Numbered from the stretch's first letter, positions 6,365 to 42,387 are shown. The stretch: 64,000 nt of DNA from Candidatus Dojkabacteria bacterium (GCA_030583845.1 CP129478.1:215175-279174); one strand, 5' to 3'. The notes: generated from the letters alone by a model not told the origin. Made by a program: numbers and translations.

Positions 6365-6386
6365 CCATGCCGCTAACCTGTAGTGC
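6365..6386. repeat. Copy of the GCCGCTAACYTATAG palindromic-repeat family (F orientation), between tRNA-Leu and dnaB
   Basis: tccatgccgctaacctgtagtgc. A partner in R orientation lies at 6527-6541 (ctatgagttagcggc) and overlaps the dnaB stop codon. Confidence 0.6.
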
Positions 6387-6526
6387 AATATTTGTGAACT
6401 ATGCAGATCCCCTATTTGTAGAAACAACGCAAAACGACTGGATAGAGTAACAAGACTTCATTAAATCCTGTGGCAACAGGCAAATGTGGCTTTGCCGGGC
6501 TATCTCCTAGCCTACTCAGAAACACA

Positions 6527-7849
6527 CTATGAGTTAGCGGCTCCGCGATAAATATTTCGGAAACTCGCAATATCCTTTACCCAAGCCAGTTCAATGATGC
6601 CAGTAGGACCGTTACGATGCTTTGCTACGAATAGATCCCCTACCCCCTTGCGCTCAGTATCCGGATTCCAGCTCTCCTCACGGTCGATAAACATTACCAC
6701 GTCAGCATCCTGCTCGATCGCTCCCGATTCGCGCAGGTCAGATAGCTGTGGCCGACGCGTGTTGCGGGTCTCAATCGCACGCGATAGCTGAGACAGAGCT
6801 ATAACAGGCACCTCAAGCTCACGAGCGATATTCTTCAATCCCTGCGAGATCATCGATACCTCCTGCGTCCTACCCTCTTTGGTCTCGGCACGCATAAGCT
6901 GCAAGTAGTCCACCATTATAATGTCGAGTCCACGCTCCAATGCCAATCGGCGGGCCTTGGTTCGCACCTCGTTGATACTTTGCCCCGGCTTATCGTCGAT
7001 GAAAATATCAGCCTCAGAGAGCACACCCATCGCGTCGGCCAGTTTTAGCAGCTTCTCGTCGTTAATCTGACGGGTTCGCAATTCCCAAAACGGGATGCCT
7101 GCCTGCATAGCCACGATACGGTCGATAATCTGCATCGAGCCCATCTCCAATGAGAAATATGCGCACCGCTTCTTCTCCGATATCGCCGCATGCCTCAAGA
7201 AATCCAGCGACAACGAGGTCTTACCGACTGACGGCCGTGCGGCCAAGATTATCAGATCCGACTGTTGGAAGCCGCCAAGAAGCGCATCAAGATCCTTGAA
7301 ACCTGTTGACACACCCCGCACGGCCGAGTCCCCATCGGCCTTCTCAGCGCGCTCATAGGCATCTTTCAACAGGTCCTTGATATGTACGAAATTGGTAGTA
7401 ACCCCCTGCTCCGCCACTCCAAATAGCATCTGCTCCGACTTATCCATCACATCCTGCACCGTGATCTCCTCATTAAACGCATACTCGGCAATCTTGGCCG
7501 AGGTCGAGATCAGCTTCCTTCTCATCGCATTCCCTTTCACAATCTTGGCATACTCCTCCGCATGCGCCGCGGTCGGCACAAACGACACTAGATCTGTCAG
7601 ATATGCTCGTCCACCTACTTTCTTTAGCTGCTTCTTGCTCTTTAATTTGTCAGTCAATGTGACCAGGTCGATTGGGAGCCCCTCTTCAAACAGCTCGAGT
7701 ATGCTGGCATATATCTGCATATGGCGCTCCTCGTAGAAGTACTCGGGCAACAGTATTCCGGCAACATTGATCACTGCGTCCTTGTCGAGGAGCATTGAGC
7801 CTAGGACGGACTTTTCTGCTTCGCTGTTTTGTGGTGGTATCTTTTCCAT
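6527..7849 (-). CDS. dnaB: Replicative DNA helicase DnaB
   Basis: The N-terminus PPQNSEAEKSVLGSMLLD is classic DnaB. Walker A GARPSVGKTS is present, as is the C-terminal RecA-like domain. There is no intein. Confidence 0.95.
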   Translation of the reverse strand: MEKIPPQNSEAEKSVLGSMLLDKDAVINVAGILLPEYFYEERHMQIYASILELFEEGLPIDLVTLTDKLKSKKQLKKVGGRAYLTDLVSFVPTAAHAEEYAKIVKGNAMRRKLISTSAKIAEYAFNEEITVQDVMDKSEQMLFGVAEQGVTTNFVHIKDLLKDAYERAEKADGDSAVRGVSTGFKDLDALLGGFQQSDLIILAARPSVGKTSLSLDFLRHAAISEKKRCAYFSLEMGSMQIIDRIVAMQAGIPFWELRTRQINDEKLLKLADAMGVLSEADIFIDDKPGQSINEVRTKARRLALERGLDIIMVDYLQLMRAETKEGRTQEVSMISQGLKNIARELEVPVIALSQLSRAIETRNTRRPQLSDLRESGAIEQDADVVMFIDREESWNPDTERKGVGDLFVAKHRNGPTGIIELAWVKDIASFRNIYRGAANS

Positions 7850-7952
7850 ATTTATTTGGTAAATGCATTCGGGTCACGAGAGTTTGTGAGGACACTTGCG
7901 AAGAACGTGGCCGAACAAATTCTCATGACCCGATAATATCAGGTGAAAGCGG

Positions 7953-7971
7953 TTAATGAAAGTTTCATTAA
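7953..7971. promoter_or_regulatory. 19-bp perfect palindrome TTAATGAAAGTTTCATTAA upstream of dnaB (candidate operator)
   Basis: An exact 9-1-9 palindrome about 105 bp upstream of the dnaB start. Related TTAATGA inverted motifs recur at the nrdA, prfA and prmC starts. Confidence 0.35.
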
Positions 7972-8120
7972 ATAAATAGAGATCCACCCACCCTGCTTTA
8001 CTGAAGTATGGATAGAGTTAATCTAGTTGGGTTGAATTATTGATAATGTGTCCTATTTCCAGAGACTCTACCAAACTGAAACTTTCCCCGCAGCCATAGC
8101 GTTTGTGGCGGCGCAATACG

Positions 8121-8149
8121 TTGACATTTCAGACCCATAGTGGTATAAT
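8121..8149 (+). promoter_or_regulatory. Consensus sigma70-type promoter (TTGACA-17 bp-TATAAT)
   Basis: TTGACA at 8121-8126, a 17-nt spacer, TATAAT at 8144-8149. It would give a leader of about 210 nt before the lipoprotein gene at 8368. That gene has a good SD (AAGGAG) 8 nt upstream of its ATG. Confidence 0.5.
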
Positions 8150-8367
8150 ACTCCAGCTTAATTCGATTGGAATTATAGCTAGGAGTGCCCCATTTTGAGG
8201 TCTCCTGTTCATTAACAATCGAAGAACGCAACTTTTGAACACATTCTCCTTTAAGAAGTTTTGCAGTCCTAATTTGGGCCTTTATTACCCTATCGCTTGG
8301 TAGGGTGATAAAAGCCCAAAATTTAGAGGCTGAAACAAAAAAATGGCGAAAGCCAAGGAGATAACCA

Positions 8368-9105
8368 ATGTTACGCTTTTTCTTTTACACTTTTTTACTG
8401 TTGATACTGATAGGGTGCGTCAACACGCCGGAAACGATAGAAGTGACCCGCGTGGTTACCGAAACTGTCGTGGAGATAGAGATCGAGGAAGTGACCCGTG
8501 TGATTACTGAAACTGTCGTGGAGATAGAGATCGTGGAAGTCACACCGACTGTTTCTCCCACAGAGGAAGCTCCCGGGTTTATTCTGAGTAGAGATGCGGT
8601 CGTGTACGCACTGGATGGACAACCATTCAAGATAATGGAGGAAGGGACAGAGTTTAACTCAGATCCAACCAGCTGTAGTCGAACTGATCCACAGTTTGCA
8701 GTTAGCTGGTGGATACAGATCGAAGGCTATTGGCTCGACACCAATGCATTCTCGACAGGATACGACGCTTGTGACAACCTTCAAAAAATCGAGTTCCAGC
8801 CCAAAGGCGCTGAATGGCGGATGCAGGAAACATCTACATTAGATGTATACGTTATTCGGAATAACGTATACATAACTAATGATGGTAGTCACCTCCAGAA
8901 TGGATCCCGATTTTACTTTGGCGGCAGTGTTGGAAACATTCACAACGTGCAAAGCGACCGTATGGCCTCCTTCCAGTTAATCAATGAGGAAAAAGGTAGC
9001 TTCCAGTATGACTACAGATTTCCGCGAGAGTGGAGCATTGGCTGGACAGAGCTGTTTGACTTTGCTGTTTATGAGCTAACCGGCCAACTGTCCCCAGAAG
9101 GGTAA
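8368..9105 (+). CDS. Secreted lipoprotein (lipobox LIGC) with a 16-aa tandem repeat
   Basis: Signal peptide MLRFFFYTFLLLILIGC. The repeat is EVTRVVTETVVEIEIE x2 plus a partial copy. Confidence 0.6.
   Translation: MLRFFFYTFLLLILIGCVNTPETIEVTRVVTETVVEIEIEEVTRVITETVVEIEIVEVTPTVSPTEEAPGFILSRDAVVYALDGQPFKIMEEGTEFNSDPTSCSRTDPQFAVSWWIQIEGYWLDTNAFSTGYDACDNLQKIEFQPKGAEWRMQETSTLDVYVIRNNVYITNDGSHLQNGSRFYFGGSVGNIHNVQSDRMASFQLINEEKGSFQYDYRFPREWSIGWTELFDFAVYELTGQLSPEG
8440..8547 (+). repeat. 48-bp tandem direct repeat (2.2 copies) inside the lipoprotein gene
   Basis: gaagtgacccgcgtggttaccgaaactgtcgtggagatagagatcgag is repeated with a few substitutions at 8440 and 8488, and a partial third unit starts at 8536. 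Confidence 0.8.
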
Positions 9106-9214
9106 AACAAACAAGTGTTCGAAGGTAAAAGCCTCAATATTGGCCCGAGGAGGACCAAATGCTTCCGTTAGGAGCCAAACCAGGTTAGACCTGTCAAAGC
9201 TTTTAGCGTTCTTC

Positions 9215-9258
9215 GAATACATCTATGCACTCAAACAATTGAGCGTATAGATGTATTT
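9215..9258. terminator. Bidirectional terminator-like nested hairpin between convergent genes
   Basis: gaatacatcta...tagatgtattt (11-bp stem) enclosing ctcaaacaattgag. It sits between the lipoprotein gene (+) and the MBL-hydrolase gene (-). Confidence 0.45.
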
Positions 9259-9286
9259 CCTACAATCATGAAAACCAACCGGCAAA

Positions 9287-9934: not shown

Positions 9935-10014
9935 TGTATTGTCTTTCTAGCAAGTAATTTATCTTCCGACCAACCCTTAATTCATCATTCGTAGCTTTAG
10001 CGAAGAATGATAAG

Positions 10015-10839
10015 TTAGCGAGATGCCCTTTTGGCGATTAAATTTATGGTCGGTTCATCCGGCACAGCAGTTATAACAAGTCGATTGGCGGCTGTCCAGA
10101 GCGGAGTGCAGGTGTATAGCGTCAAAATCGGCTCACTGCTGCTATCCTCAACCTCTACTGCACTTGGCCTTACGACCTTACTATCCTTAGCGATATATCT
10201 ATACCTATCACCCTTCCAATACACGATTATCTCATCGCCTGCCTGCACCTTGTCGAGATGATAGAAAGATCGCCCACCATCCAGATAGCTAAATCTATGT
10301 GCAGTAAGAATTGTGTTGCTGCCTTTGTTCGGTGTACTACCATTTGGACGGATCCACGCTCCTTTGTCGAGCGCCTTGTCAGTTGTGCCCTCTACTATGT
10401 CCATGTCTACGCCGATTGATGGGATAAGGACTATGTCATCTTTATAGTAGTCGCTCTGCTGATTTTTTCCTTTGAGCGAGAGCTGGTAATCTCTTCCCTG
10501 CTCTTCTCCTCCGTCGTCGTTGGCGCGGTTGTCGTACTCTTTGCCTGTCAGGCTGTTGAGGTAGTAGTTGAGTGATGGTGCGAGTGGTGCAAGTATGAGG
10601 TAAAGCGAGATAATCACGATGAGCGCAAGCGCGATGTTTGTGAGTGTTCCTTTATGGCGTATGGAGAAACTTGGTGCCTTAATCCGAGGCATATCGAAGC
10701 TTGGTTTTCGCATGTTGAAACGCCTATCTTTTGACTTGGATAGTGCTGCTACCCTAGCGCTACTTACACCTGTGCTTATTGAGCTGTTGATTAAATTACG
10801 ATTCTCCATATATTTCATTGCAATTCTAGCACAAATCAA
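10015..10839 (-). CDS. Sortase family transpeptidase
   Basis: TM anchor present. The catalytic His region is ILTAHRFSY and the TLxTC motif is LTLYTCTP. Confidence 0.75.
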   Translation of the reverse strand: MICARIAMKYMENRNLINSSISTGVSSARVAALSKSKDRRFNMRKPSFDMPRIKAPSFSIRHKGTLTNIALALIVIISLYLILAPLAPSLNYYLNSLTGKEYDNRANDDGGEEQGRDYQLSLKGKNQQSDYYKDDIVLIPSIGVDMDIVEGTTDKALDKGAWIRPNGSTPNKGSNTILTAHRFSYLDGGRSFYHLDKVQAGDEIIVYWKGDRYRYIAKDSKVVRPSAVEVEDSSSEPILTLYTCTPLWTAANRLVITAVPDEPTINLIAKRASR

Positions 10840-11610: not shown

Positions 11611-11730
11611 TTACACTTCCTTATTGTATGCGGCCATTTAGTTGGTGAATCAAGGGCTTTTGGCATATAATTCAGTGGTTTTAATCTGCCCTACTACGCT
11701 TTAGTAATATTTTAGCTTCATGAAATTTTA

Positions 11731-12825
<1,095 letters not shown>

Positions 12826-12842
12826 ACTTTCATTAGGTTTTA

Positions 12843-13781
12843 ATGAAATCTCACCAGGGCTCCCCTACCCCATATAGATTTAATTCCACACCGGAAGAGC
12901 TTAAGCTGCTGCTCCACGCAAAAAGCGTTCTAGAGTCTAAACATTATCTCGACACTGATCGAATTGCTCGTGAGATTGTTGAATTTTGCAAGGGCGATGG
13001 ATTAGCGGTTTACGAGACTCTTGACCGCATTAAGCAAGATGAGCCATGGGAGTATATCCAGGGCTGGACATTTTTTTCTGGCCACAAATTTATAGTCAAC
13101 TCTTCTGTCTTAATCCCTCGGCCCGAAAGTGAGCAGCTAGTTGAGCTGATGTTTAATGAAGTTAAAAATTTCATTAAACCCGCCAGGGAGAAAGGCAGAA
13201 TAAACATTATAGATATAGGTACAGGCAGCGGCTGCATAATCACCTCCATTTTCATTAAACTGAGACAGGAACTTCCTCAAGAGCAGTTTAATGAACTTAA
13301 CTTTTATGCGATCGACATTAGCGAAGATGCTCTAGAGGTAGCAAAAAGCAACGCTGCGCTTAATGAAATAGCTAGAGATAGCATTACTTTTATCCACTCG
13401 GATCTGCTTAGCCGAGCAACAAGCATTGACTTCACCCTACCAACATTTATTGTAAGCAACCCGCCATATGTGACCAGCGCTGAGTTTGAGGAGGCAGACA
13501 AGTCAGTGACCCAGTACGAGCCAAAGATAGCGCTCGTCGCTGATGAGGAAGGTCTACAATTTTACCGAAGAATAGTTAATGAAATTAATGAAAAGTCTAT
13601 CAAAATTATATCGGTAATATTTGAGACATCCCCATCAGTCGTAGATGGTATCCTTAATCTACTGCTCAAGACAGATCTAAGCGGTGAGTCTGTAAAAGAT
13701 ATCTACGAAAAAGAGCGATTTGTCGTCGCAAGAAATAGATCTACTCAACCCGTTGGCCCTATACCCTCACCAGTAGATTAA
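12843..13781 (+). CDS. prmC: Release-factor glutamine N5-methyltransferase PrmC/HemK
   Basis: NPPY motif (VSNPPYV) and an SAM-binding DIGTGSGCI. It is immediately downstream of prfA. Confidence 0.85.
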   Translation: MKSHQGSPTPYRFNSTPEELKLLLHAKSVLESKHYLDTDRIAREIVEFCKGDGLAVYETLDRIKQDEPWEYIQGWTFFSGHKFIVNSSVLIPRPESEQLVELMFNEVKNFIKPAREKGRINIIDIGTGSGCIITSIFIKLRQELPQEQFNELNFYAIDISEDALEVAKSNAALNEIARDSITFIHSDLLSRATSIDFTLPTFIVSNPPYVTSAEFEEADKSVTQYEPKIALVADEEGLQFYRRIVNEINEKSIKIISVIFETSPSVVDGILNLLLKTDLSGESVKDIYEKERFVVARNRSTQPVGPIPSPVD

Positions 13782-13828: not shown

Positions 13829-15280
13829 ATGCAAACTGTAAGCTTCATAATACTGACAACCCTCTTCCTAACGATTGTTGTTGGCTCGCTTCCTACAATC
13901 TATCAATTCCAGACACAAGACCATATGCTTTATCGCATCCTCAGAAGGGGTGATAATCGTCTCGGCCTGATCCCGTTTAAGCTCCCTGCAAAGAGCACGC
14001 ACAACCTGATCATCTTTGGATTAGCAGGCCTTGCAAATCTCGCGACATATCTATTCTTGCTGCAAAATGAAGCCATAGATAGCTATCTCCATCTTGCAGC
14101 AATTACTATTGTCTGGGCACTACTTGGCAAGCTCTATCTCCTACTTGCTTTAGTTGCAAGTAATTTTATAGCGAATATAAAGCGCAGCAAGCAGATTGCT
14201 TCAGCAAGGCAGAGGTTAGCTCAATTTCCGGATTTACAGGTGATCGGAATCACAGGATCGTATGGCAAGACTTCTGTGAAAGAAAATATCGCGCAGATAC
14301 TCGCGACAAAATTTAAAGTCGCTAAAACTCCCAGCAACAATAACACCCTTCTAGGACATGCACTAGCCATACTTCACCAGCTCAAAAGTGACGACCGGTA
14401 CTTAGTCGCCGAGTATGGTGCTTATCGAAAAGGCGAGATCAAAGAGATGGTCGAGCTCTTACCACCCAAATTCGCCGTACTGACCGGCTTGGGCAATCAA
14501 CACCTAGAGCTTTTTGGCTCGCAAAGGAACCTAATCGAGGCCAAATCAGAGCTATTCCAGAAGCTACCTGAGGATGGAGTCGCATATCTTAACTGTGACA
14601 CGGCTCACTACTCGGAAATCCTACCCCTGATTAAAGGGAGAAAGATCACCTACTCTCTCGAAGATCGCTCGGCAGATCTATATGCTAGTGAGATTGTTGT
14701 CGATATAAAAACCAAATCTTCATTTAAGGTCGAATATAAAGGGAATCATTATGAATTTGAATGCGAGGTGTTGGGCAAGCATAATATCTTAAATCTTTTA
14801 CCTGCAATTGCGATTGCTCTCGACTTAGGAATGAGCCAGAGTGAGATTCAAGATGGACTTAATGCCCTAACCGCACCGAAAGAGAGATTAAATCTGGTTG
14901 ATTTAGGCAGTATAAAACTGCTTGATGATAGCTACAATTCCAGCTTTGAGGGCTTCTTGGCAGCACTAGATGTAATGCAGCAAATAGGTGGCGACCTACA
15001 CATTGTATCGCGAGGGCTACTAGAGCTCAGTGGAGATAAAGAGGAAATATATGCAAAACTCACAGCCCAGATAAACAAAACTGGTGCGACATTGTGGACC
15101 ACTGACTCATTCTTCTTTAAGTATGAGCTGCAAAACGGAAAGCATTATAATAGTGAGGAGAAGCTGTATGATGAGCTAAGCAAGAGCCTCGGCAATCAGA
15201 GCGTCTTGCTCATCGAAGGCAGAGTAAATCCGGCATTAAAAGAGAAATTCTTGAGCCAGTACAGAGCGAAGGCAAATTAA
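13829..15280 (+). CDS. Mur ligase family protein (MurF-like) with an unusual N-terminal multi-TM extension
   Basis: About 130 aa of hydrophobic helices precede the Mur ligase P-loop VIGITGSYGKTS. The central and C-terminal Mur ligase domains follow. Confidence 0.6.
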   Translation: MQTVSFIILTTLFLTIVVGSLPTIYQFQTQDHMLYRILRRGDNRLGLIPFKLPAKSTHNLIIFGLAGLANLATYLFLLQNEAIDSYLHLAAITIVWALLGKLYLLLALVASNFIANIKRSKQIASARQRLAQFPDLQVIGITGSYGKTSVKENIAQILATKFKVAKTPSNNNTLLGHALAILHQLKSDDRYLVAEYGAYRKGEIKEMVELLPPKFAVLTGLGNQHLELFGSQRNLIEAKSELFQKLPEDGVAYLNCDTAHYSEILPLIKGRKITYSLEDRSADLYASEIVVDIKTKSSFKVEYKGNHYEFECEVLGKHNILNLLPAIAIALDLGMSQSEIQDGLNALTAPKERLNLVDLGSIKLLDDSYNSSFEGFLAALDVMQQIGGDLHIVSRGLLELSGDKEEIYAKLTAQINKTGATLWTTDSFFFKYELQNGKHYNSEEKLYDELSKSLGNQSVLLIEGRVNPALKEKFLSQYRAKAN

Positions 15281-15309
15281 GAAGATAAATTAATCTGGAG
15301 CGACAATTC

Positions 15310-16368: not shown

Positions 16369-16392
16369 GTAAAATTTCACACACTACTCGAC

Positions 16393-29992: not shown

Positions 29993-29999
29993 CTAAAAT

Positions 30000-31864: not shown

Positions 31865-31879
31865 GCCGCTAACCTATAG
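31865..31879. repeat. GCCGCTAACCTATAG repeat copy immediately abutting the ychF start codon
   Basis: On the minus strand the sequence reads CTATAGGTTAGCGGC followed directly by ATGGTAACA (ychF Met-Val-Thr). Confidence 0.7.
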
Positions 31880-32125: not shown

Positions 32126-32160
32126 AGATACTCTCACTTTGCGAATACAATATTAATCAT

Positions 32161-34029
32161 ATGATCAAGCGACTAAACCGCACAAAGTTAATATCACTCT
32201 TTGCACTACTACTTCTTGTTGCTACAAATTACCTTCCTCTACCACGAGCATACGCCTCAAACGGCACTTCGACTGACTTTCATGTGAGCGATAGCTATAT
32301 CTTGGTATATGAAGAGGGTCAAGAGTACATCACTGTTAGCGAGAAGCTCACTATCGAGGCATTTAATGAAAACTACAAATTGCCTGCTGGCACTACACAG
32401 CAATTTATAATCCACGACTTCCTGATTAACAGCGACCCTGCAGAGAGAGAATTTAAGCGGAACTCACTAACTGTCACCGATAGCAGAGGCAATCAGCTAT
32501 CTCCACAGCTCACCGAGATCGATGCAGGCCTCCAATTTGCTATCACTACGCCATACGACATCACCACAGAGAGAGATTACTCAGTCACAATCGAATTTGA
32601 CACACATGAGCTGGTCAACCTAAATGGCAATATCATCAACTTCTACATCCCGGGCATCCCAGCCGATACCGAGCTCAAGACCGTCAACAAAAATAATGGC
32701 GTCACCTTCACCTATGATTATGACGCCGAGCTAAGCATCCCTGATAGCCTGCCACAGGCAAGCTATGTTGCCCCACGTGAGATTTCTACTACTGAATTGG
32801 GCGGCTCACGAGTTTTCAAGCTAGATACAGAAGACCGACTCGGCGAGACTGGATGGATTCAGATCGGCACGGAGCAGTTCTACTACTTCAAAATGGTTCA
32901 GCGTACGCCAAAAACTGACCTACTTATACCCCCTGGGGTAAACGATTACACCGAATATCTCTCTACCAATATATACCAGCTCCCTCTGCCCCGTACCTAT
33001 GCCGAGACCGATCAGGAGGTATACTTTTCGGATCTTTCGCCCAAGCCATCAAGGATTGAGATAGACGACGAAGGGAATGTGATCGGATATTTTGAAGTGC
33101 CGGCCAATCAGAATGGAGAGATCAAAATTGAAGGGTATATCACACTGAAAAGCGAGAGCCAGAATGAGATCCCAAGCGTTGAGCTAGATGCCTATTTAGA
33201 GAGTGTCCGCAATAACCCTGCCCTAGAGCAGTACACCCGATCAGATAGATATTGGGAGTCGGACAGTGATGAGGTGATGGGAATTGCTGCCGAGCTAGCC
33301 AAGGATAAAACCACCCTTTCAGAGCTAGTGCGCACCGATTATGAATATATCGTCGAGACTTTCGATTATAGTTACGAGAAGGTTGAGGGTGAGAACAAAA
33401 GACTTGGTGCGGTTGCCGCGCTTAATGGCTCAGAGGCTGTATGCATGGAGTATGCCGATGCACTGATTGCCATATTGAGGGCACAGGGTGTCGCTGCCAA
33501 GGCTGCTGTCGGATATGGCAACGACCCAACAGGCGCCGAGAACAGCATCGGACTCGAAGAAGCAACCGAGCAGAATATCGCCCACCAATGGGTACAGGTA
33601 TGGATACCAGAATATGGTTGGCTCTCACTCGACCCTACCTGGGGAGAAAGCGGACGAGTCTACATAGGTGGCAATCTAGACCATATCCTCTGGTACACGA
33701 TAGGAAATTCAAGCCAGGACTACATAGGCACAGCACTTAGCAGTGCCGACAATATTAGCTCTGAGTCATTTGAAAACTACGACCTCTATCTGCAAGCCCT
33801 ACCAAAAGGAAGCATCCCAGAAATTAGCCAGCTCATTCAGGTTGACCAGCTGACCTCTCAGTTCTCAGCAGATGACGATGCCTTTTCAAGCTATCTGAAG
33901 ACCACACCTTTAGGGAAATCAATCGTGATCATTGCGCCAACCTGTGCAATGCTGCTTTTCACATTTCTGATAGTGACCGTAGCAGTAAGGATGGCGAAAA
34001 AGTATTTAATCGTTCACTCCCCCCGCTAA
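32161..34029 (+). CDS. Transglutaminase-like (papain-fold Cys protease/transglutaminase core) surface protein with N- and C-terminal membrane anchors
   Basis: Core SEAVCMEYADALIAILRAQG (Cys), HQWVQVWIPEYGWLSLDPTWG (His/Asp). N-terminal signal/TM and C-terminal TM. Confidence 0.7.
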   Translation: MIKRLNRTKLISLFALLLLVATNYLPLPRAYASNGTSTDFHVSDSYILVYEEGQEYITVSEKLTIEAFNENYKLPAGTTQQFIIHDFLINSDPAEREFKRNSLTVTDSRGNQLSPQLTEIDAGLQFAITTPYDITTERDYSVTIEFDTHELVNLNGNIINFYIPGIPADTELKTVNKNNGVTFTYDYDAELSIPDSLPQASYVAPREISTTELGGSRVFKLDTEDRLGETGWIQIGTEQFYYFKMVQRTPKTDLLIPPGVNDYTEYLSTNIYQLPLPRTYAETDQEVYFSDLSPKPSRIEIDDEGNVIGYFEVPANQNGEIKIEGYITLKSESQNEIPSVELDAYLESVRNNPALEQYTRSDRYWESDSDEVMGIAAELAKDKTTLSELVRTDYEYIVETFDYSYEKVEGENKRLGAVAALNGSEAVCMEYADALIAILRAQGVAAKAAVGYGNDPTGAENSIGLEEATEQNIAHQWVQVWIPEYGWLSLDPTWGESGRVYIGGNLDHILWYTIGNSSQDYIGTALSSADNISSESFENYDLYLQALPKGSIPEISQLIQVDQLTSQFSADDDAFSSYLKTTPLGKSIVIIAPTCAMLLFTFLIVTVAVRMAKKYLIVHSPR

Positions 34030-34085
34030 CTCATAATGCGCAGCATTTCACGGCTCATTAACCATAATTAATGAGCAAGTATAGT
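34021..34085. repeat. Right 60-bp inverted repeat flanking the transglutaminase-like gene (F-oriented core overlaps its TAA stop)
   Basis: ccccgctaactcataatgcgcagcatttcacggctcattaaccataattaatgagcaagtatag. It contains the internal palindrome ctcattaaccataattaatgag. Confidence 0.85.
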
Positions 34086-34118
34086 GCGATCTAGCCCATA
34101 TGGCAGCAGCTGGTCGGA

Positions 34119-35636
34119 CTACTGCTTATACACAAACAGCTTCTCCATATTCAGCGCCTCAATACCGGTATCAAGCCGCTCTCCACTCGTGGCATAGATA
34201 GTTAGCAACAGTTCGCCCTTTTCTACCTTATCGCCAGCTGTTTTATGCAAATACACGCCAGCCTCTTTGATAAATGGATTGCCAAGCGCGCGCGATATCT
34301 TCACAATCTCCTTGTTATCGACGAAATCTATTATGCCATCTCTTTCTGCCATAAATTTCTGCTCATAATCACCAATCTTGATCTCCTCGGATGTTTTCTT
34401 GCCAGGCGCACCCTGAGCCATAGCTATCTCCCAGAACTTTTCTGCGGCTTCACCCGAATCTAGCTTCTGCAATGCTGCTCTTCTACCCTCACCTACTGGC
34501 ACTTTCTCTGTCAATTCAAGCAGTACACCCGCCATGTCGACAGCTGTTTCCTCGAGCTTCATAGGCCGCTCTGGATGGCGCTCAAATACTTGCAAAATGT
34601 CGCGGACCTCGAGGGCTGGACCAATACCATAGCCATCTGGTGCAACCACCCGCCTAGTGTATGTTTCGCACTTAATTCCAACTTTGGCAAAGAGCTTCTT
34701 AAACTCTGTGCTGAGAAATTCAACATCATCTGGCTTCTCAACCTTAGTGCCTGGGCCATATGGGATATCGATCACAATATGAGTGATACCCATTGAGACC
34801 TTCTTAGCAATGATACTGACTAACAGCTTCTGGAAAGATTGGACATGGAGGCCACGCTCTACTCCAATCAGTACATCATCAGCTGGTGATAATCTCAAGG
34901 CTCCACCCCAGATCATAAATGCCCCTGTTTTCTTGATAATCTCATACAGCTCTTCATTGGTATGGGTCATCGGCATGATTACCTCAAGGATGTCGGTAGT
35001 ACCAGCAGGAGTTGTAATGGCTCGGGTAGATGTATTTGGGATGACCAATCCGTGAGCGGCGATTATTGGCACAAGGATCGGAGTTATGCCTTTTGCTGCC
35101 ACACCACCGATCGAGTGCTTGTCGACAACCATATTTCCATTCTCCTTTACATTCCTGAAGTCGAGTACATCACCTGCCTTCGCCATTCCATGGATTGTTG
35201 CCAACACCTCTTCCTCGTCAAACCCTGGGTTGAAGAAGGTCGCCATAAAGTAGGCAATCTCAACCTCACGTATCTTTCGGTCTGAGATATCCTGGGTAAT
35301 TACCTCTAGCTCGTGTGCACTGAGCTTGCTGCCAAGAAGCTTCTTCTTGATATACTCAAGCGATTCTGGGCGGTCAATAATTGTAATCGTGATCGTATCT
35401 CCCTGATGGATTCCATAGCGTGACCAGATATCCTCGTTTATGCCCACATGCCCTTCTGGGACTACACTGTCTGTAACCTCAACGACTACATATAGCACCA
35501 CATCATTTTGAAATGAAAATGAGACTATGTCGCCCTTATTGATGCCCTCTTTTCGCGCATCGTCGGCATTTAATAACACTTCGAGCTCATTTCCTGTCTC
35601 GACATCTAAATTGTTGCTCTTCAAATATAACGCCAT
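34119..35636 (-). CDS. AMP phosphorylase / thymidine phosphorylase family (archaeal-type, with an N-terminal extension domain)
   Basis: 505 aa. DeoA-type core (HSIGGVAAKGITPILVPIIAAHG...TTPAGTTD) plus the roughly 90-aa N-terminal domain typical of AMP phosphorylases. It is adjacent to the eIF-2B-like isomerase. Confidence 0.7.
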   Translation of the reverse strand: MALYLKSNNLDVETGNELEVLLNADDARKEGINKGDIVSFSFQNDVVLYVVVEVTDSVVPEGHVGINEDIWSRYGIHQGDTITITIIDRPESLEYIKKKLLGSKLSAHELEVITQDISDRKIREVEIAYFMATFFNPGFDEEEVLATIHGMAKAGDVLDFRNVKENGNMVVDKHSIGGVAAKGITPILVPIIAAHGLVIPNTSTRAITTPAGTTDILEVIMPMTHTNEELYEIIKKTGAFMIWGGALRLSPADDVLIGVERGLHVQSFQKLLVSIIAKKVSMGITHIVIDIPYGPGTKVEKPDDVEFLSTEFKKLFAKVGIKCETYTRRVVAPDGYGIGPALEVRDILQVFERHPERPMKLEETAVDMAGVLLELTEKVPVGEGRRAALQKLDSGEAAEKFWEIAMAQGAPGKKTSEEIKIGDYEQKFMAERDGIIDFVDNKEIVKISRALGNPFIKEAGVYLHKTAGDKVEKGELLLTIYATSGERLDTGIEALNMEKLFVYKQ

Positions 35637-35691
35637 TCGCTAAATGTATAGCATTTAGATTAAAATTTTCAAAGTGACATTGACTACCATG

Positions 35692-36636
35692 CTAGAAAAG
35701 CCATTTATACTCTCGCTGTATCGCACGTTCGATCTCATCTGGCTTAAGCACACCTAATTCAGTTATATATCCTGTGATAAATTCTTTGTTAATCAGCTCA
35801 AACGATGGATTTACAAGCTTCAAGCCAGCAGGAGCCTCTTTCCACACCTCGCTTGCCTCTCGCATCTCAATCTCAGGTGGCTTGTAGGCAGTGGTTACAT
35901 CTGTCTTCAACACACTCCCAACGACATATAATGGCTTGCTCGCATAATAAGCGGCAAGCGCCACTCCCCAGCTGCCGATCTTATTAATCGCATCACCCTT
36001 CATGCTTATCTCATCACAGCCTGTAAAGATCACATCAATCTCGTGGCTCCCTCGACCGATGATGTAAGACTCGGCTGAACTATCTACAATCATTGTGGTA
36101 TCGACACCGCCTTCAACCAGAGCCTTCGCCGTGAGCCTACCCTGCATCAACGGTCGCGTCTCAGTGCATACAGCCTTAAATCCTGGAACACGTTTGGCAT
36201 GCTGAATGATCAGCCCCTCAACAGTAGATGAATGGCAGTGAGTCAGCACCTCGTTTACATCTGTACCAAGCAGCTCAAGTCCGTTCTGGGTTATCTTCTG
36301 CTTTGACTCTTCGATAAACTTGAGGAACTCATCGGCGAGCTGTCCAACCTTATCTTTCGCCTCATTTATATCGTGTAGATCGGCGTTTTCGATCCTCAGC
36401 ATATGCATGACAAACTTAAGACCGTTTTTTGCCAAAGGCTCATTCGGCCTCGCTTGTGATAGCCGTACACCTACTCGCTCTACCTCTGAGAGGAATATTG
36501 GCACATCGTTATCTCCATTATAATCTTTGGCAAAAAGCTTCAGGCCCTCAAATGTGGCAATCGCGACATTGGTTGCCCCTTGGATCTTTACATCTTTGAT
36601 ATCTTGCTCAATCTGTTCAATGCTACTGTATTCCAT
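35692..36636 (-). CDS. eIF-2B alpha/beta/delta-like protein, probable ribose-1,5-bisphosphate isomerase
   Basis: VIFTGCDEISMKGDAINKIGSWGVALAAYYASKPLYVVGSVLK, characteristic of the eIF-2B/MtnA/R15P isomerase family. Its position next to the AMP phosphorylase favours R15P isomerase. Confidence 0.65.
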   Translation of the reverse strand: MEYSSIEQIEQDIKDVKIQGATNVAIATFEGLKLFAKDYNGDNDVPIFLSEVERVGVRLSQARPNEPLAKNGLKFVMHMLRIENADLHDINEAKDKVGQLADEFLKFIEESKQKITQNGLELLGTDVNEVLTHCHSSTVEGLIIQHAKRVPGFKAVCTETRPLMQGRLTAKALVEGGVDTTMIVDSSAESYIIGRGSHEIDVIFTGCDEISMKGDAINKIGSWGVALAAYYASKPLYVVGSVLKTDVTTAYKPPEIEMREASEVWKEAPAGLKLVNPSFELINKEFITGYITELGVLKPDEIERAIQREYKWLF

Positions 36637-36638
36637 TG

Positions 36639-38132
36639 TTAATCAAGCTCTACAACTTCATTTAGATACGGCACATATGATTTCAGCTGTAGCTCCTCGG
36701 TAATGTTTGCGGCAAAACCCATCGCTATGCTCTCCTCACCATGCATCACAAATACTGTCTTGGGCGAGTGACCGAAGCCGCGCAACCAGTACCGGAGATC
36801 TCGTGAATCCGCGTGCGCCGAAAATCCGCCCAATGTGTGTACCTGTGCCCTTACATCCACTTCCCGACCCTTTATCCTCACAACCGGCTCACCATCAACA
36901 ATCCTTCGTCCTAGCGTCCCTTTTACCTGATACCCAACGAAAACAATATGGGTATTCTTCTTCTCAATATTGTTTGCGAGGTGGTGGACAATTCTTCCAC
37001 CGTTACACATGCCTGAGCCGGCTAATATGACGATGCCGTTCAGTCCAATAAGTCGCCTTGACTCATCTGCACTCTCTACAGTGTGGAAGCCCTCGAAATG
37101 AAAAGGATCATCGCCTTTTTCAAGCAATCTGCGTGCATCCTCATCATAGAATGTTGGGTATTTACGGAATACTTCTGTAGCCTTCATCGCCATAGGGCTG
37201 TCGAGATATACTTCGAGGCCGCTCAATAGCTTGTTTTCAATTGCTACATTTAATTCGTAGATTATCTCCTGCGCTCGCTCTATTGCAAATGTAGGGATCA
37301 AGATATTTCCACCATCTTTCTGTGCGTCCTTAATTACTTTTAGAAACTCTTTTACCGTCTCATCCTTGCTCTTGTGGAGGCGGTTGCCATATGTCGACTC
37401 AATCAGCACATAGTCGGCCTCGCGCAGCATATCTGGATCTCGCACAATTCTCTGTCCCTGCTGACCCAAGTCACCCGAGAACACAATTTTCCTCTGTGTT
37501 CCACTACTGTTTTTTACCCATACTTCGAATATTGCCGAGCCCAAGATATGCCCTGAGTCTCGCATTCTAAACTCTAAACCGTCACGAAGCACCACTGAAT
37601 TTCCAAATGGGTAGATATCGAATAGTCCCATCGCTTTTGTCACATCCTCAGTTGTGAAGAGTGGCTCTTTATTTTCGTAAAGACTACCCTCCTCTGCGTG
37701 TGGCCAATATGAGTTGCCATTCGTTTTTTGGCTGCCACCCTTTCCATATCCTTGCTGGTCGGCATAGTAATGCTCTTCAGACTCTCGCTTCTGGCGGGTA
37801 AGCCATCTTTGATACTCCTCTTCCTGTAGGTTTGCTGCGTCCATGAGCACAATCTCGGCAAGATCGCGAGTTGGCTGGGTCGAAATAATCCTACCTTTGA
37901 AGCCTTTGCGTACAAGCTGAGGAACCCTACCACAATGGTCAAAATGGGCGTGAGTTAGTAGCAGATACTCGATCTCCGCAGGATCAAATGGGAAATCCTC
38001 CCGGTTAAGCTGATCCAGCTCGTCCGAGCCTTGAAATGCACCGCAATCTACAAGTATCTTGGTATATCCGAGGTCTAGAAAATAGCACGAGCCTGTTACT
38101 GTCCTTGCGGCGCCACAAAACTGTATCTTCAT
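36639..38132 (-). CDS. beta-CASP family MBL-fold ribonuclease (RNase J / CPSF73-like)
   Basis: The N-terminal KIQFCGAARTVTGSCYFLD...ILVDCG fits the CPSF/RNase J pattern. HAHFDHCG is present. Size about 500 aa. Confidence 0.65.
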   Translation of the reverse strand: MKIQFCGAARTVTGSCYFLDLGYTKILVDCGAFQGSDELDQLNREDFPFDPAEIEYLLLTHAHFDHCGRVPQLVRKGFKGRIISTQPTRDLAEIVLMDAANLQEEEYQRWLTRQKRESEEHYYADQQGYGKGGSQKTNGNSYWPHAEEGSLYENKEPLFTTEDVTKAMGLFDIYPFGNSVVLRDGLEFRMRDSGHILGSAIFEVWVKNSSGTQRKIVFSGDLGQQGQRIVRDPDMLREADYVLIESTYGNRLHKSKDETVKEFLKVIKDAQKDGGNILIPTFAIERAQEIIYELNVAIENKLLSGLEVYLDSPMAMKATEVFRKYPTFYDEDARRLLEKGDDPFHFEGFHTVESADESRRLIGLNGIVILAGSGMCNGGRIVHHLANNIEKKNTHIVFVGYQVKGTLGRRIVDGEPVVRIKGREVDVRAQVHTLGGFSAHADSRDLRYWLRGFGHSPKTVFVMHGEESIAMGFAANITEELQLKSYVPYLNEVVELD

Positions 38133-38215
38133 CCTGAATCGGGCAGTTAAATTATATTTCAGCCTGTTTAATCTGATACAGTTTATATTAGGTTTGCTGG
38201 TATGGCAAACCTCAG

Positions 38216-38230
38216 GCCGCTAACTTATAG
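38216..38230. repeat. GCCGCTAACTTATAG repeat copy (F) with an extension similar to the 60-bp IR
   Basis: gccgctaacttatagtacgaagtatttcacggtgcaatgc aligns with ccgctaactcataatgcgcagcatttcacggctcatt from the right IR. A partner in R orientation lies at 38451-38466. Confidence 0.7.
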
Positions 38231-38422
38231 TACGAAGTATTTCACGGTGCAATGCTTACAATAAATGGGCACGGATAGTGCACAATAGTTTATGGCAGCA
38301 GATTGTAATTTAGTATTAGGTAGCGACTAGAATTGAGTGTGGTAGACTGTAGCCAGAATTAAATAATTTAACTAAGACCGCACAGTCTTGGCTATAATAA
38401 GCCGTTATATTGCACAATTATC

Positions 38423-39340
38423 ATGACAAACACGCCAAGAAGCACTTCGCCTTATAGGTTAGCGGCACAGATCGAGAGAGTTGCGGTGATCTATACCTTC
38501 GCCGCACTCCTCTTTCCAATTCTGGCTGTGCTGCTCAGCTATCACTCCTTCTATTTCGATCTCTTCTCGCACTTCCAACTTCAATACTCCGTCATCTGGC
38601 TGATTTCGGCTCTTGTCATGGTGTTACTCAAATTTTACAGAGAGGCTTTTGCCTTTATATTCTTCATTTTGGCGTTCAGCATGCCACTCATCTACCCTTC
38701 TACCTTCGCATCGGCCCCAATTTACAAGCCCGAAATATACTTCATGAATACCAACGCCTTCAGGACAGAGGCAGAATACCGCCAGATGGCCAATTACATA
38801 TCTAGCTATCGCCCAGCCAAAATCGCGCTAGTCGAAGCGCACGACGATGTGGTTGAAGAACTTGTTCAAAAAGGCTACCCACTCCAAACCAGCTATACTC
38901 GTGGGGCACTCTCATGCGCAATACTATCTGAAGAAGTGCCAATAAGGAGCACAGTTATTCAAGCCACAGAATACCCTATCTGCTACGCGCAATATGCCGA
39001 CTACCACTTAATCGTGGTACACCCGATTCCACCGCTCAATCCACATAACTTCGAGCGGGAGAAACGCTACTTTACATATATAGAAGAGATGATTGAAGAG
39101 CTTGATAGCCGTGATGAGCGCTTCGTGCTGGTTGGCGATTTCAACTCTACCTCTTATTCGCAACTATTTTCAAATAGCTTCCATGACTATTTCGTACAGA
39201 ATAATTACAGCTGGAACAGCGGCTCACTGCTAACCATCCCCATCGACCATGCGATGTCGAATAGTGAGATCAATGTAACCATGGGAGACACAGTTTTCTC
39301 TGATCACCGAGGGTTATTTGTGGAAATAGATCAAGATTAA
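38423..39340 (+). CDS. Endonuclease/exonuclease/phosphatase (EEP) family membrane protein. The true start may be the in-frame GTG at about 38486.
   Basis: VLVGDFNSTSY...IDHAMSN...FSDHRGLFVEI EEP motifs. N-terminal TM helices. The repeat motif cttataggttagcggc lies inside the first 15 codons of the ATG-started ORF. Confidence 0.6.
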   Translation: MTNTPRSTSPYRLAAQIERVAVIYTFAALLFPILAVLLSYHSFYFDLFSHFQLQYSVIWLISALVMVLLKFYREAFAFIFFILAFSMPLIYPSTFASAPIYKPEIYFMNTNAFRTEAEYRQMANYISSYRPAKIALVEAHDDVVEELVQKGYPLQTSYTRGALSCAILSEEVPIRSTVIQATEYPICYAQYADYHLIVVHPIPPLNPHNFEREKRYFTYIEEMIEELDSRDERFVLVGDFNSTSYSQLFSNSFHDYFVQNNYSWNSGSLLTIPIDHAMSNSEINVTMGDTVFSDHRGLFVEIDQD

Positions 39341-40812
39341 GCTGGCTGAGTGTCTAGATATTTTCTGGCCTCATCGATTAGCGCCTCTTTGGTATTTAGG
39401 ATCGGGTCGTCCAGTACTCTCTCCAGAAGATGATTCAAGATTTTACCCAATTGTGGCCCCTTCTCTACCCCAAGCTGCTCCATCAGGTCATGACCGGTGA
39501 TCTCCAGGTCAGAGATTTTTAGCGCCATGTCTTTCTCCCGTACCTCTGAGATTCTTAGCTGCAGCTCGGCTATCTCATCCGGATTGAATGCCGACATCGG
39601 ATTAGACGAGGCATCGGCGATGCGCAATGCGAATAGGTCGTCTAGGTTCTCGTCGCCGACCTTTGACATGAAGCGTCGTACCGCCGAATCACTCCACTCG
39701 TGAACTTTGACATGCTCCACCTGCTCTTCACTCATCCCCTCCTGCACATGAGGATAGTAGAACATGTGCCATCTCACCAGCGTGACAGTCTTTTCTATAT
39801 CGCTGTTTGAGAAGCGCATACGCTTCATAATCTGCTTGGTCATCTCGGCTCCTTCGGTGTCATGACCATAGAAATGCCCATCCTTCATATCCTTTCGTGG
39901 TTTCCCGATATCGTGAAATAGTGCTGCAAGCTTAATATTGTCTGGCGCCACATCACAGGTGCGAAGTGAATGCCAATATACATCATCATGATGGAAAAGC
40001 TTCTGCTCAACATCCACTCCCTCAAGCAGCTCAGGGATGAAGATTTCTAACAATCCGGTCTGCCTCATCATCTCGATGCCGACCGATGGCTTCGGAGAGC
40101 CTAAGAGTGTTTTCATAAACTCATCGCGTACCCTTTCCATCGATACCTGCTTTGCCACAGGTAGAGCTTCTTTAATCGCCTCAAATGTCTCAGGATCAAG
40201 CTCGAACTGTAGCTGTGAAGCCAGTCGGCACGCTTTAAATGCACGCAGCCCATCCTCCTTGAATCTCTCAAGCGGTGTGCCAACAGCCTTTACCAATTTT
40301 CTCGAGATATCCCCCATCCCGTCAAACGGATCGTACACTACCCACTCTCGCTCACCCTCATCACCAGATAGCTCTGCAGATGCCAGGTCTATGGCCATAG
40401 CGTTAATTGTGAAATCGCGACGCCCAAGATCCTTATCCAGATCCCCTATAAATTCTACTTTTGAAGGCCAGCGACCATCCACATACTGCTCCTCAGATCT
40501 GAATGTCGTCACCTCTACCTCAAATATTTCACCATGCACGTCTGGCACCAGTGCCGATACCATACCGAAGCGAGCACCAGTAGAGACCGCTTTCGGAAAT
40601 AGCTCTAGCATCTCTTCCGGCTTTGCATCGGTTGCTAGATCCCAGTCATATGGAGTCTTGCCCAGAGCGATATCTCGAATAGCGCCTCCTACCAGATAGG
40701 CCTTATACCCCTCTTTTAGGAGCATTCGCGCTACCTTCTGGACATAGTCCGGAATCTGTGTGGTTAATTTCTGCTCATTCATTAGTAAGTTATCTTCAAT
40801 AAACTTGGGCAA
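39337..40812 (-). CDS. cca: CCA-adding tRNA nucleotidyltransferase with an HD phosphohydrolase domain
   Basis: LVGGAIRDIALGKTPYDWDLATDAKPEE head domain. HD motif LFHDIGKP. Confidence 0.8.
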   Translation of the reverse strand: MPKFIEDNLLMNEQKLTTQIPDYVQKVARMLLKEGYKAYLVGGAIRDIALGKTPYDWDLATDAKPEEMLELFPKAVSTGARFGMVSALVPDVHGEIFEVEVTTFRSEEQYVDGRWPSKVEFIGDLDKDLGRRDFTINAMAIDLASAELSGDEGEREWVVYDPFDGMGDISRKLVKAVGTPLERFKEDGLRAFKACRLASQLQFELDPETFEAIKEALPVAKQVSMERVRDEFMKTLLGSPKPSVGIEMMRQTGLLEIFIPELLEGVDVEQKLFHHDDVYWHSLRTCDVAPDNIKLAALFHDIGKPRKDMKDGHFYGHDTEGAEMTKQIMKRMRFSNSDIEKTVTLVRWHMFYYPHVQEGMSEEQVEHVKVHEWSDSAVRRFMSKVGDENLDDLFALRIADASSNPMSAFNPDEIAELQLRISEVREKDMALKISDLEITGHDLMEQLGVEKGPQLGKILNHLLERVLDDPILNTKEALIDEARKYLDTQPA

Positions 40813-40839
40813 ATTAGCTTGACCCGATCTTACACCAAA

Positions 40840-42264
40840 CTAGAGCAGTACGAAAAGTGCTAACACCAGCCCTATCAAGATTGTCACCAGGAAGATTTGC
40901 ATCAATCTTAAGCGATAAAACTTATCGCCCACCAGCGCTGCGAGCACAATTTTCACTACTAAGTTCACGCTGGCAGCAATAACCAGTACAAATGCACCAA
41001 ATTCATACGTGATCTTATCTCCTACGAGAGTGGCAGTATTTATCGTGACGACATCAAGCCCTAAGACTGAAGATATCATTGTGGATACAACGAATCCCGA
41101 GTCTCCAGCATAATACAACGCTAGACGGGTAAATATTGTAATAACAGCAAATATTGCTCCAAAAACCAACGCCGGCTTTATCTTGAATGGTGAGTCAAAA
41201 TTCAGACCGACAGCCTCGATCTCCTTGCTTTTAGCCTTGCCACTCCGCCTAAACATATGCGTGCTCCAGATGACCCATACAAGCAGAAAGGCTGACATCC
41301 CCATCATAGGGATGAACAGTAGCTTTGCCAATGCTATATCCACAATCATCGCGAGGAAGAGGACACGCACGAAACTTGTCATGTTAGCCATCACAGTAGC
41401 ATTCAGCAGCAGCGTCTTGTCAGACTTAGTCTTTACCCGTGTGCTGCTCTCAGCTAAGGTCTGTGTCGCAACAGTACTTGATACTAGCCCACCAAGAAGC
41501 CCAAGCAGGTTAAGTCCTCTGTTCTTGCCCAAGATCCTGGTCAGGAAGTAACCAACAAAGTTCATGCTCAAAATAAATACCACCACCATCCACCATCTTT
41601 GTGGGTTAAAGATTTCCGACGCCTCAAGTACCTCTACCGACAGATTCTGCGCAATTTGCTCGCCTACCACTGGTATATCTGCGATCCCGTAATAGGCATT
41701 TGGCAGAAACGGCAATATGACAAGCGTAAACAGTATGAATTTCAAGGTGTCCTCTATCTCTTTTTCCGAGAACTTGGCTATCGCGGTCTTTAGCTCTGAC
41801 TTCATAGAAAGAACAACCGCATCGATTACCGCAATGGCGACAACCAGCTTGAGTGGCACATCTGTCGCAAACATGAGCAGAGAGAGCGTGTAAACGAGAA
41901 TAATCGAAAGCTCAGTGGTCAGCCCAAACGAGTTCTTATCAAAATAGTTGAGTACGAATGAAATTATAATGAAAACCATTAAGCCGATGCTTATCGAGAT
42001 CGTTAATGCCTCCAACCCATAATGATATGCAAGCCCCGAGACGGATCCAAGCACGGCGAGCAAGATATATGTCCTTACCCCACCGATATTATCAGCAGGT
42101 ATCGCCGCCTTTATGAAAGGGAATTTACGCCTCGCGTTCTCGGATTTCTTCTGGATCTCCTTTGCCGTCCTTGGATTCTTCCACACACCATCCCGCTCCA
42201 ATCCAAGTAGTGCTCCCAAGCATATTGCCAGTATAAATCTGAAGACTATATCGGTAAGTGTCAT
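40840..42264 (-). CDS. MgtC/SapB-family plus DUF4010-type polytopic membrane protein
   Basis: The N-terminal FRFILAICLGALLGLERD is the MgtC signature. The remainder is a long multi-TM region. Confidence 0.55.
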   Translation of the reverse strand: MTLTDIVFRFILAICLGALLGLERDGVWKNPRTAKEIQKKSENARRKFPFIKAAIPADNIGGVRTYILLAVLGSVSGLAYHYGLEALTISISIGLMVFIIISFVLNYFDKNSFGLTTELSIILVYTLSLLMFATDVPLKLVVAIAVIDAVVLSMKSELKTAIAKFSEKEIEDTLKFILFTLVILPFLPNAYYGIADIPVVGEQIAQNLSVEVLEASEIFNPQRWWMVVVFILSMNFVGYFLTRILGKNRGLNLLGLLGGLVSSTVATQTLAESSTRVKTKSDKTLLLNATVMANMTSFVRVLFLAMIVDIALAKLLFIPMMGMSAFLLVWVIWSTHMFRRSGKAKSKEIEAVGLNFDSPFKIKPALVFGAIFAVITIFTRLALYYAGDSGFVVSTMISSVLGLDVVTINTATLVGDKITYEFGAFVLVIAASVNLVVKIVLAALVGDKFYRLRLMQIFLVTILIGLVLALFVLL

Positions 42265-42343
42265 GAGCAGCTTTGTCGACTAGTTAAATTTCATTAAATT
42301 CATGAAAATCTTTAATTTAATCTATCAGAAAACCGTATCCTCA

Positions 42344-42387
42344 GCCACCCCGCTAACCTATATCACGATATAGGTTAGCGGGGTGGC
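42344..42387. repeat. 44-bp perfect palindrome of the repeat family in the divergent intergenic region (MgtC-like / ppaC)
   Basis: gccaccccgctaacctatat - cacg - atataggttagcggggtggc. Confidence 0.85.

Follow-up and report, generated by a model that had tools for sequence, protein, structure and literature searches.

Half-sites, hairpins and wide units in a Dojkabacteria genome

We analyzed a 64-kb stretch of a Candidatus Dojkabacteria genome (WS6, Candidate Phyla Radiation (CPR); GCA_030583845.1, CP129478.1:215175-279174), hereafter the window, which carries a family of short palindromic repeats scattered between its genes. The window is 88.5% coding, and its gene content, including a sortase, FemAB proteins, a Mur ligase, and a 4258-aa open reading frame (ORF), fits a CPR genome. 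The half-site motif of the repeat, GCCGCTAACYYATAG, has 10 matches in the window when at most one mismatch is allowed, compared to 0.02 expected from composition, and none of 100 shuffled sequences reached this number. At up to two mismatches, half-sites at 34022, 42349, and 42368 join, which yields 13 clear half-sites, and a profile built from 27 half-sites returned exactly the same 13 (E = 7e-7 to 5e-3). Beyond a large score gap, this profile picked up two relics, at 46812-46825 and 10010-10020. A first-pass annotation of the window had counted at least 14 half-sites; the family it described is confirmed, with the tally now standing at 13 clear half-sites plus two relics. Most of the positions it gave are also retained, except that the first copy starts at 6369 (with one mismatch) and the copy placed at 38451 occupies 38452-38466. 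The partial reverse copy reported at 10008 has four mismatches to the 15-nt core, with CGCTAACTTAT as its only intact part, and an extended form said to be shared by four copies, CTATARGTTAGCGGCATGG, is exact in three only, the fourth reading CTACAGG. Overall, the family is spread over 8 to 10 loci (8 in 36 kb), i.e., about one locus per 4.5 kb in this lineage over 6-42 kb. All of them are intergenic or confined to the first or last ~15 codons of genes, and the conserved outer end of the repeat unit reads CCGCTAAC. In an Rfam scan of the window, a tRNA-Leu alone was matched, and all window copies lie outside ribosomal RNA (rRNA) genes. The family is thus dispersed, extragenic, and hairpin-forming, and it is real rather than artefactual, as it was recovered in independent NCBI, Logan, and JGI assemblies.

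Palindromes and inverted pairs were delineated with a repeat finder, which gave arms of 19-24 nt and units of 44-265 bp in the window. Three loci are compact hairpins. The first (18530-18578, 23-nt arms, 96% complementary) separates nrdA, which stops at 18604, from nrdB, which starts at 18507; in the minus-strand transcript, its sole mismatch still pairs as G-U. The second (28490-28540, 24-nt arms, 100% complementary) is found 20 nt 3' of the rpsR stop, and the third (42344-42387, 21-nt arms, 100% complementary), a member of subfamily CCCGCTAACCTATAT, separates the divergent MgtC-like and DHH genes, with the -35-like GTGGCA of the DHH gene overlapping its right end. All three had been described as perfect palindromes with 4-11-nt loops: the palindromes are indeed there, though the first is not perfect, and the true loops are 2-3 nt long, 4-11 nt being the spacing between 15-mers. 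RNA folding predictions for the short hairpins were strong, at -40 to -44 kcal/mol with z-scores of about -11.

The other well-preserved copies form wide units, in which inverted arms stand far apart as the first-pass annotation had noticed, and whose ends pair over 20-28 nt in predicted folds. Unit A (6365-6545, arms at ~6365-6387 and 6522-6545) sits between the dnaB 3' end and a tRNA-Leu promoter, unit B (31861-32125, left end GCGGCATGG on the minus strand) fills the gap between the divergent ychF and transglutaminase-like genes, and unit C (38212-38470) lies in the divergent gap between a beta-CASP and an EEP gene. A solo end, unit D (34019-34083), consists of one half-site and a 61-nt subterminal module at the end of the transglutaminase-like ORF. 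The right 61 nt of unit B recur inverted in unit D (32061-32121 and 34023-34083, 95% complementary), so the 1.9-kb gene at 32161-34029 is bracketed by two such copies, as initially reported. The two relics are weaker profile hits: one (10005-10022, CTCGCTAACTTATCA on the minus strand, E = 0.73) holds the sortase stop codon, and the other (46812-46825, CACTATGGGTTAG, E = 0.3) is located in a 54-nt intergenic gap and corresponds to a right-arm variant found in rRNA copies of a relative, L046 (see below).

Several genes begin or end within these copies: ychF takes its start codon from one, and dnaB, the sortase gene, and the transglutaminase-like gene each take their stop codon from another. The ychF ATG (31862-31864) is part of the CATG at the end of unit B; the abutment noted earlier at 31865 therefore stands, although the copy involved is forward and not reverse. 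The resulting YchF starts with MVTR, whereas the YchF of relatives starts with MSVTR and is preceded by its own upstream sequence, including TGGTATAAT. The dnaB stop (6527-6529) and the last four codons (AANS) are within the right arm of unit A, at a position where DnaB of a relative ends in a single K, and the sortase stop (10015-10017) falls in the relic described above. Unit D truncates the transglutaminase-like ORF, whose stop is read as CGC TAA at 34027-34029, and the protein ends in ...VHSPR in the window vs ...VNSPESGDID in the relative L002. These three stops had been placed inside copies by the first-pass annotation, which also located a copy inside the EEP N-terminus; this last copy, the right arm of unit C, would encode EEP residues ~10-16 (PYRLAAQ) if the ATG at 38423 is the true start. 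Reading the sequence in either orientation, two of three frames hit a stop inside the 15-mer, which accounts for genes often ending inside a copy.

Gain and loss of copies and the symmetry of their arms

We compared the window to a syntenic relative, Logan contig SRR28525168_1199 (loci L002 and L006, 38 kb), in which YchF and DnaB are 88% and 91% identical to those of the window. The repeat proved polymorphic, with four copies found only in the window (the 18530 hairpin and units B, C, and D), two found only in the relative (hairpins at L002 15214-15256 and L006 16740-16801), and two sites in common (unit A and the hairpin downstream of rpsR). Since presence differs between genomes with ~90% protein identity, copies are both gained and lost. 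For instance, the 18530 hairpin is missing from the orthologous 46-bp nrdA/nrdB spacer of L006, where the sortase gene and the next gene also overlap, without the spacer in which the window has its 10005-10022 relic. Unit B is absent from L002, L004, and L005 (in the latter, YchF is 91% identical), unit D is absent from L002, and so is unit C, the proximal 5' leader of the beta-CASP gene being the only sequence there that could be aligned. Conversely, an orthologous unit A is present in L006 and L007, and the rpsR-downstream site of L002 and L003 carries another subfamily variant (CCCGCTAACCTATAC, 18-nt loop) as well as an extra half-site. The copies of the syntenic relative are also found in the independent samples L003 and L007, and two more distant relatives (DnaB 77% identical, 21 kb each) displayed no half-site (L039) or one to two (L040).

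Downstream of a LytR_C gene, the two genomes carry different hairpins: that of L006 belongs to the family, and that of the window, at exactly the same place, is an unrelated GC-rich, terminator-like hairpin with a T tract (1608-1652, 21-nt arms, 90% complementary, followed by TTTATTT). A TGCTAGAAT promoter further downstream is conserved in both. The family itself does not behave as an intrinsic terminator: no family hairpin was found among terminator-like sites in 26000-43000, and the tails of the copies are not T-rich.

A promoter- or operator-like role, with TATAAG acting as a -10 hexamer, had been offered as an alternative explanation, and the 15-mer could likewise be envisioned as a DNA-uptake sequence. 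Some copies do lie 0-80 bp upstream of gene starts in the matching orientation, the ychF ATG comes 8 nt after a TATAGG, and CPR bacteria are thought to depend on DNA uptake. However, neither TATAAG nor TATAGG has the conserved final T (T6) of a -10 hexamer, and the sigma-70-like sites obtained in a consensus scan adjoin copies instead of being contained in them (32123-32151, 38208-38180, 42383-42412). The strongest promoter-like sites near copies (10 of 12) were beside and not in the repeats, and none was found on the ychF strand within unit B. Copies also occur in a convergent gap (34022) and at the 3' ends of genes, and relatives that do not carry them have their own promoters 5' of the same genes, such as TGGTATAAT before ychF in L002. 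Unlike uptake sequences, half-sites are lacking from the coding interior of this mostly coding window. Both versions are further at odds with the coexistence in one genome of several subfamilies with both arms changed together, and with the copies inside rRNA genes presented below. A promoter, operator, or uptake signal is thus unsupported, and we give it very little credence. As a separate observation, the sigma-70-like matches start a few bases from the outer ends of three copies.

The arms of the repeat vary in a concerted manner. Of the stem cells in eight short-to-medium hairpins, which come from four genomes, 90.7% were paired, a level that none of 500 shuffles attained, and 13 pairs were changed on both sides, with almost no one-sided changes. 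The variants group into subfamilies (GCCGCTAAC, CCCGCTAAC, and GCCGCCAAC), so that a few events probably account for many of the changed cells. Some palindromes run 3-5 nt past the core into unique sequence (CCTAG/CTAGG, GCCAC/GTGGC), and the flanks of some copies are complementary rather than direct repeats. Wide pairs are all oriented forward-then-reverse (4/4), but their arms are only 70-85% symmetric, and mismatches in the intergenic ones display no G-U bias (9 vs 9). This combination of perfect close arms and imperfect wide arms fits either intrastrand template switching at quasi-palindromes or selection for pairing.

Copies at rRNA helix tips and an associated GIY-YIG gene

When an exact full-hairpin pattern was searched for in GTDB representative genomes, it was detected at one locus only, inside the 16S gene of L001, where the repeat forms helix h6 (V1) and a second copy forms h10. 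Following ligase-16S synteny into other genomes revealed further rRNA copies: in L041, the repeat is found in 16S h6 with compensatory changes; in L047, it is found in 16S h6 and 23S H98; and in L046, a single operon harbors five copies, in 16S h6 and h44 and in 23S near model position 225, H25, and H68. All rRNA copies are located at the apical loops of helices. In L045, the same helices end in short UUCG-type tips, and a comparison of these filled and empty sites indicates that the element replaces the apical stem-loop without target duplication. L045 also carries one perfect half-site at the stop codon of a Xer-like recombinase gene and a degenerate hairpin in its 23S gene. Outside of the rRNA operon, the sampled DNA of the genomes with rRNA copies contained almost none.

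Additional observations were made on these rRNA loci and on the wider occurrence of the motif. Although L001 (CAYZTC010000010.1) is labeled as Saccharibacteria, the best named homologues of its ligase are from Dojkabacteria and its 16S resembles that of L041, so this label may be wrong. Two Logan contigs from different runs, L043 (12333) and L044 (8538), break off at an identical base where 16S V1 begins (…GTCGAACGGTC), as could result if a palindrome or repeat interrupted the assembly. Insertions of other kinds are also present in these rRNA genes: the L047 23S harbors a LAGLIDADG ORF (16666-17184), and L046 has 72 extra nt near 23S model position 283 (~15000-15072), neither of which belongs to this repeat family. 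In JGI metagenomes, the hairpin pattern had no match and the 19-mer half-site had one chance match. A phage link was rejected, as the 30 single matches of the 15-mer in IMG/VR are at chance level.

The rRNA copies bring in the main rival to a mobile-element origin, namely that the repeat is a host-used RNA module, a hairpin recognized by a conserved Dojkabacteria factor (e.g., for RNase III-type processing or mRNA-end protection), used in rRNA precursors and intergenic transcripts alike, kept by selection, and spread from hairpin to hairpin by gene conversion without a dedicated mobile-element enzyme. Consistent with such a module, even deeply diverged genomes retain CUAACUUAUAG in the h6 copy despite the usual hypervariability of this region, and the arms at the dnaB/tRNA-Leu site are conserved although the interior is saturated. 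Transition mismatches in the rRNA copies (one misregistered row, L001 h10, being excluded) also lean toward sense-strand G-U (24 vs 9 A-C), which demonstrates no more than that pairing of the transcript matters there. In the window, several copies are found just 3' of highly expressed genes or between operon genes (rpsR, nrdA/nrdB), and in L006 one copy stands in place of a canonical terminator hairpin. On the other hand, close relatives differ in their copies with no sign that neighboring genes need them, and copies between divergent promoters (42344, units B and C) are in a position where a 3'-end or operon role cannot apply. The stems are not followed by a T tract, and one copy carries a nuclease gene. 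The balanced mismatches of the intergenic wide pairs differ from the bias seen in rRNA, and in the short intergenic hairpins Watson-Crick symmetry holds for both strands and G-U intermediates are nearly absent, indicative of a process acting on DNA. We therefore regard a host module as rather unlikely to explain the family.

The nuclease gene is found in the L046 23S H25 copy (15366-15696), whose arm pair encloses an 86-aa ORF matching PF01541 (E = 4e-13) with the GIY, YIG, Arg, and Glu motifs all intact, and whose right arm encodes the last codons (RTIS) and the stop of this ORF. Hence the same arms bound both rRNA helix-tip insertions and a GIY-YIG ORF. A second gene, P0363/P0512, encodes a protein 47% identical to this one, the second closest among 150 representative homologues, which ends in ...SYRLAGWWRAY. 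YRLAG is the translation of CTATAGGTTAGCGGG in frame 2 and does not occur once in 170,000 control residues, and the EEP ORF of the window reads PYRLAA across its own repeat copy in the same way. P0512 probably comes from a WS6 genome and may represent a copy outside rRNA. The nearest solved relatives of the GIY-YIG protein are Slx1 structure-specific nucleases, a weak similarity (E = 0.03), and NCBIfam and PHROGs searches assigned the protein to no family.

These two genes also bear on another possible origin, in which the repeats would be a classical REP/REPIN family mobilized in trans by a RAYT (an IS200/IS605-like Y1 transposase), with the GIY-YIG gene as an unrelated passenger. REPINs are likewise made of extragenic palindromic units in inverted doublets that form long hairpins, leave no target-site duplication, and come in subfamilies with symmetric variants, and all three features are found here. 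Nonetheless, the conserved 5' GTAG of such units is lacking, GTAG being found in a single copy (6369-6383), and the Y1 transposase domain was absent from Pfam scans of the window and from the called genes of ~190 kb of related loci. Considering, in addition, that two independent GIY-YIG genes overlap the repeat, we judge a RAYT-mobilized family to be distinctly improbable.

A candidate foldback element and its relation to known systems

Taken together, we consider that the family is probably a lineage-specific, mostly non-autonomous foldback element of Dojkabacteria, akin to miniature inverted-repeat transposable elements (MITEs) and REPINs, which occupies stem-loop tips and is possibly mobilized by a GIY-YIG enzyme. 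Its conserved unit would consist of two inverted arms of ~20 nt each, (T/G)CCGCTAACYTATAG(Y)(R)CG. Between these arms lies a loop of as little as 1-3 nt, a stretch of unrelated DNA of up to ~230 bp, or, as seen in one relative, a small gene for a GIY-YIG nuclease. The element would occupy or replace the apical part of existing stem-loops, i.e., intergenic hairpins in the window and 16S/23S helix tips in relatives, and its copies would spread as DNA. An Slx1/YhbQ-like GIY-YIG nuclease acting on hairpin or cruciform DNA may be the mobilizing enzyme, and the perfection of close arm pairs would be maintained either through intrastrand template switching or through selection for pairing. Most copies in the window may be neutral passengers, presumably tolerated because two of three frames hit a stop and because only insertions at gene edges or between genes survive in an 88% coding genome.

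Several observations weigh against such an element. Pfam searches on 30 window ORFs identified no transposase, RAYT, or GIY-YIG domain, and a tblastn search with the GIY-YIG protein found no match in the 64-kb window. GIY-YIG enzymes are not known to act as transposases, and the GIY-YIG ORF of L046 may simply ride along inside a hairpin loop. Target-site duplications were sought at the window loci and at four filled-versus-empty rRNA sites, but none was found at any of them, and intergenic divergence is too high to place exact insertion breakpoints. Units A, B, and C and the L006 copy have unrelated interiors, with no resemblance even between orthologous copies, so that the wide forms do not behave like copies of one MITE master; the sharing of interior sequence is limited to the 61 nt common to the right part of unit B and to unit D, which the left part of unit C shares at 73%. 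Finally, at the dnaB/tRNA-Leu site, the arms are ~85% conserved while the interior is 37% identical, i.e., at chance level, and the 16S h6 copy is conserved across genomes with ligases only ~53% identical. For these two sites, purifying selection linked to a host function fits as well as continued activity or gene conversion.

The first-pass annotation had likened the repeats to REP/BIME, Correia, RPE, or MITE-type elements. The kind of element was well recognized, i.e., dispersed, extragenic, hairpin-forming, and polymorphic, but the family is a member of none of those named. Like REP/REPIN-RAYT systems, it consists of short extragenic palindromes, often in inverted doublets folding into long structures, with subfamilies, without target duplication, and with units located between genes and after operon genes. 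No RAYT was seen and the 5' GTAG is missing; the family also differs from these systems in having copies inside rRNA genes in relatives and in what may lie between its arms, be it unrelated DNA of up to 230 bp or a GIY-YIG gene. With Correia elements of Neisseria and the MITEs RUP, ERIC, and Nezha, the family shares terminal inverted repeats of ~20-26 nt, a small and non-coding body, transcribed copies that fold, and insertion at gene boundaries that alters gene ends and expression signals. Unlike these elements, it has no TA or other target duplication and no conserved body, its sequence is unrelated, and its candidate autonomous form encodes a GIY-YIG nuclease in place of a DDE transposase. 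A Correia element was specifically rejected, as the arms differ from the 26-nt Correia repeat and no TA duplication was found. RPEs of Rickettsia are palindromic repeats in a reduced genome that can join genes, including RNA genes; however, they insert in frame inside ORFs, whereas the window family touches only terminal codons and is unrelated in sequence. Short mobile palindromes located both between genes and in variable parts of rRNA are also known from another small genome, that of yeast mitochondria, as GC clusters. These differ from the window family in belonging to another domain of life and in sequence, and we know of no nuclease gene inside them.

The closest parallels for the rRNA copies may be the insertions of CPR rRNA genes and the classical 23S rRNA intervening sequences, as the copies of relatives are mostly shorter than 200 bp and are found at 16S/23S stem-loop tips, including the classical H25 site; the copies of the window differ in all being outside rRNA. 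A survey of CPR rRNA insertions reported many short non-intron insertions, along with GIY-YIG ORFs in insertions that resemble neither intron class and are located at poorly conserved sites (Tsurumaki et al., J Bacteriol 2024, PMC11270868). The text of this survey mentions no repeats, palindromes, or inverted repeats, and thus draws no link to a genome-dispersed repeat family. A literature search on palindromic repeats in Dojkabacteria, Patescibacteria, and CPR returned nothing relevant, including no report tying rRNA insertions to dispersed repeats.

Other features of the window were noted along the way. A second, unrelated palindromic motif, approximately TTTCATTAA-N-TTAATGAAA, occurs at 11716-11737, 12828-12849, 21481-21502, and 47492-47513, as well as at ~42290 and ~31990; it is found right at the starts of prfA, a prmC-like gene, and nrdA, and could be an operator. 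Between rpsF and ychF, the window has 878 bp (29868-30745), compared to 100 bp in L002, and the overlapping ORFs in this region, 30000-30605(-) and 30019-30816(+), have no Pfam match. Two blocks are specific to the window relative to L006: in one (7850-9286), an ORF without Pfam match (8368-9105) carries a tandem repeat of 48 nt (8440-8535), and the other (13829-17409) contains a Mur-ligase gene and two FemAB genes. The giant 4258-aa ORF (50891-63667) displays internal ~37-nt repeats every 1.3-1.6 kb.

CPR genomes are roughly 1 Mb with very little spare DNA, so that active repeat turnover was unexpected in this group. Essential genes (ychF, dnaB) owe a start or stop codon to the copies of this family, which also alter the 16S V1 and V9 sequences used in taxonomy and primer design and break assemblies at perfect palindromes. 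The window also ties the catalogued but unexplained CPR rRNA and GIY-YIG insertions to a dispersed repeat family and a candidate enzyme, which makes the origin and mobility of these insertions testable. As a more tentative possibility, the family may represent an unrecognized type of mobile element, a palindromic foldback that spreads by cutting and replacing the tips of DNA stem-loops and that, in its autonomous form, carries no gene but that of a minimal Slx1/YhbQ-like GIY-YIG structure-specific nuclease. If so, its targets would include terminator-like hairpins and the DNA coding for rRNA helix tips, which would explain where the many short non-intron insertions in CPR rRNA genes come from, and in the lineage of the window the element would have left the rRNA operon for intergenic DNA.

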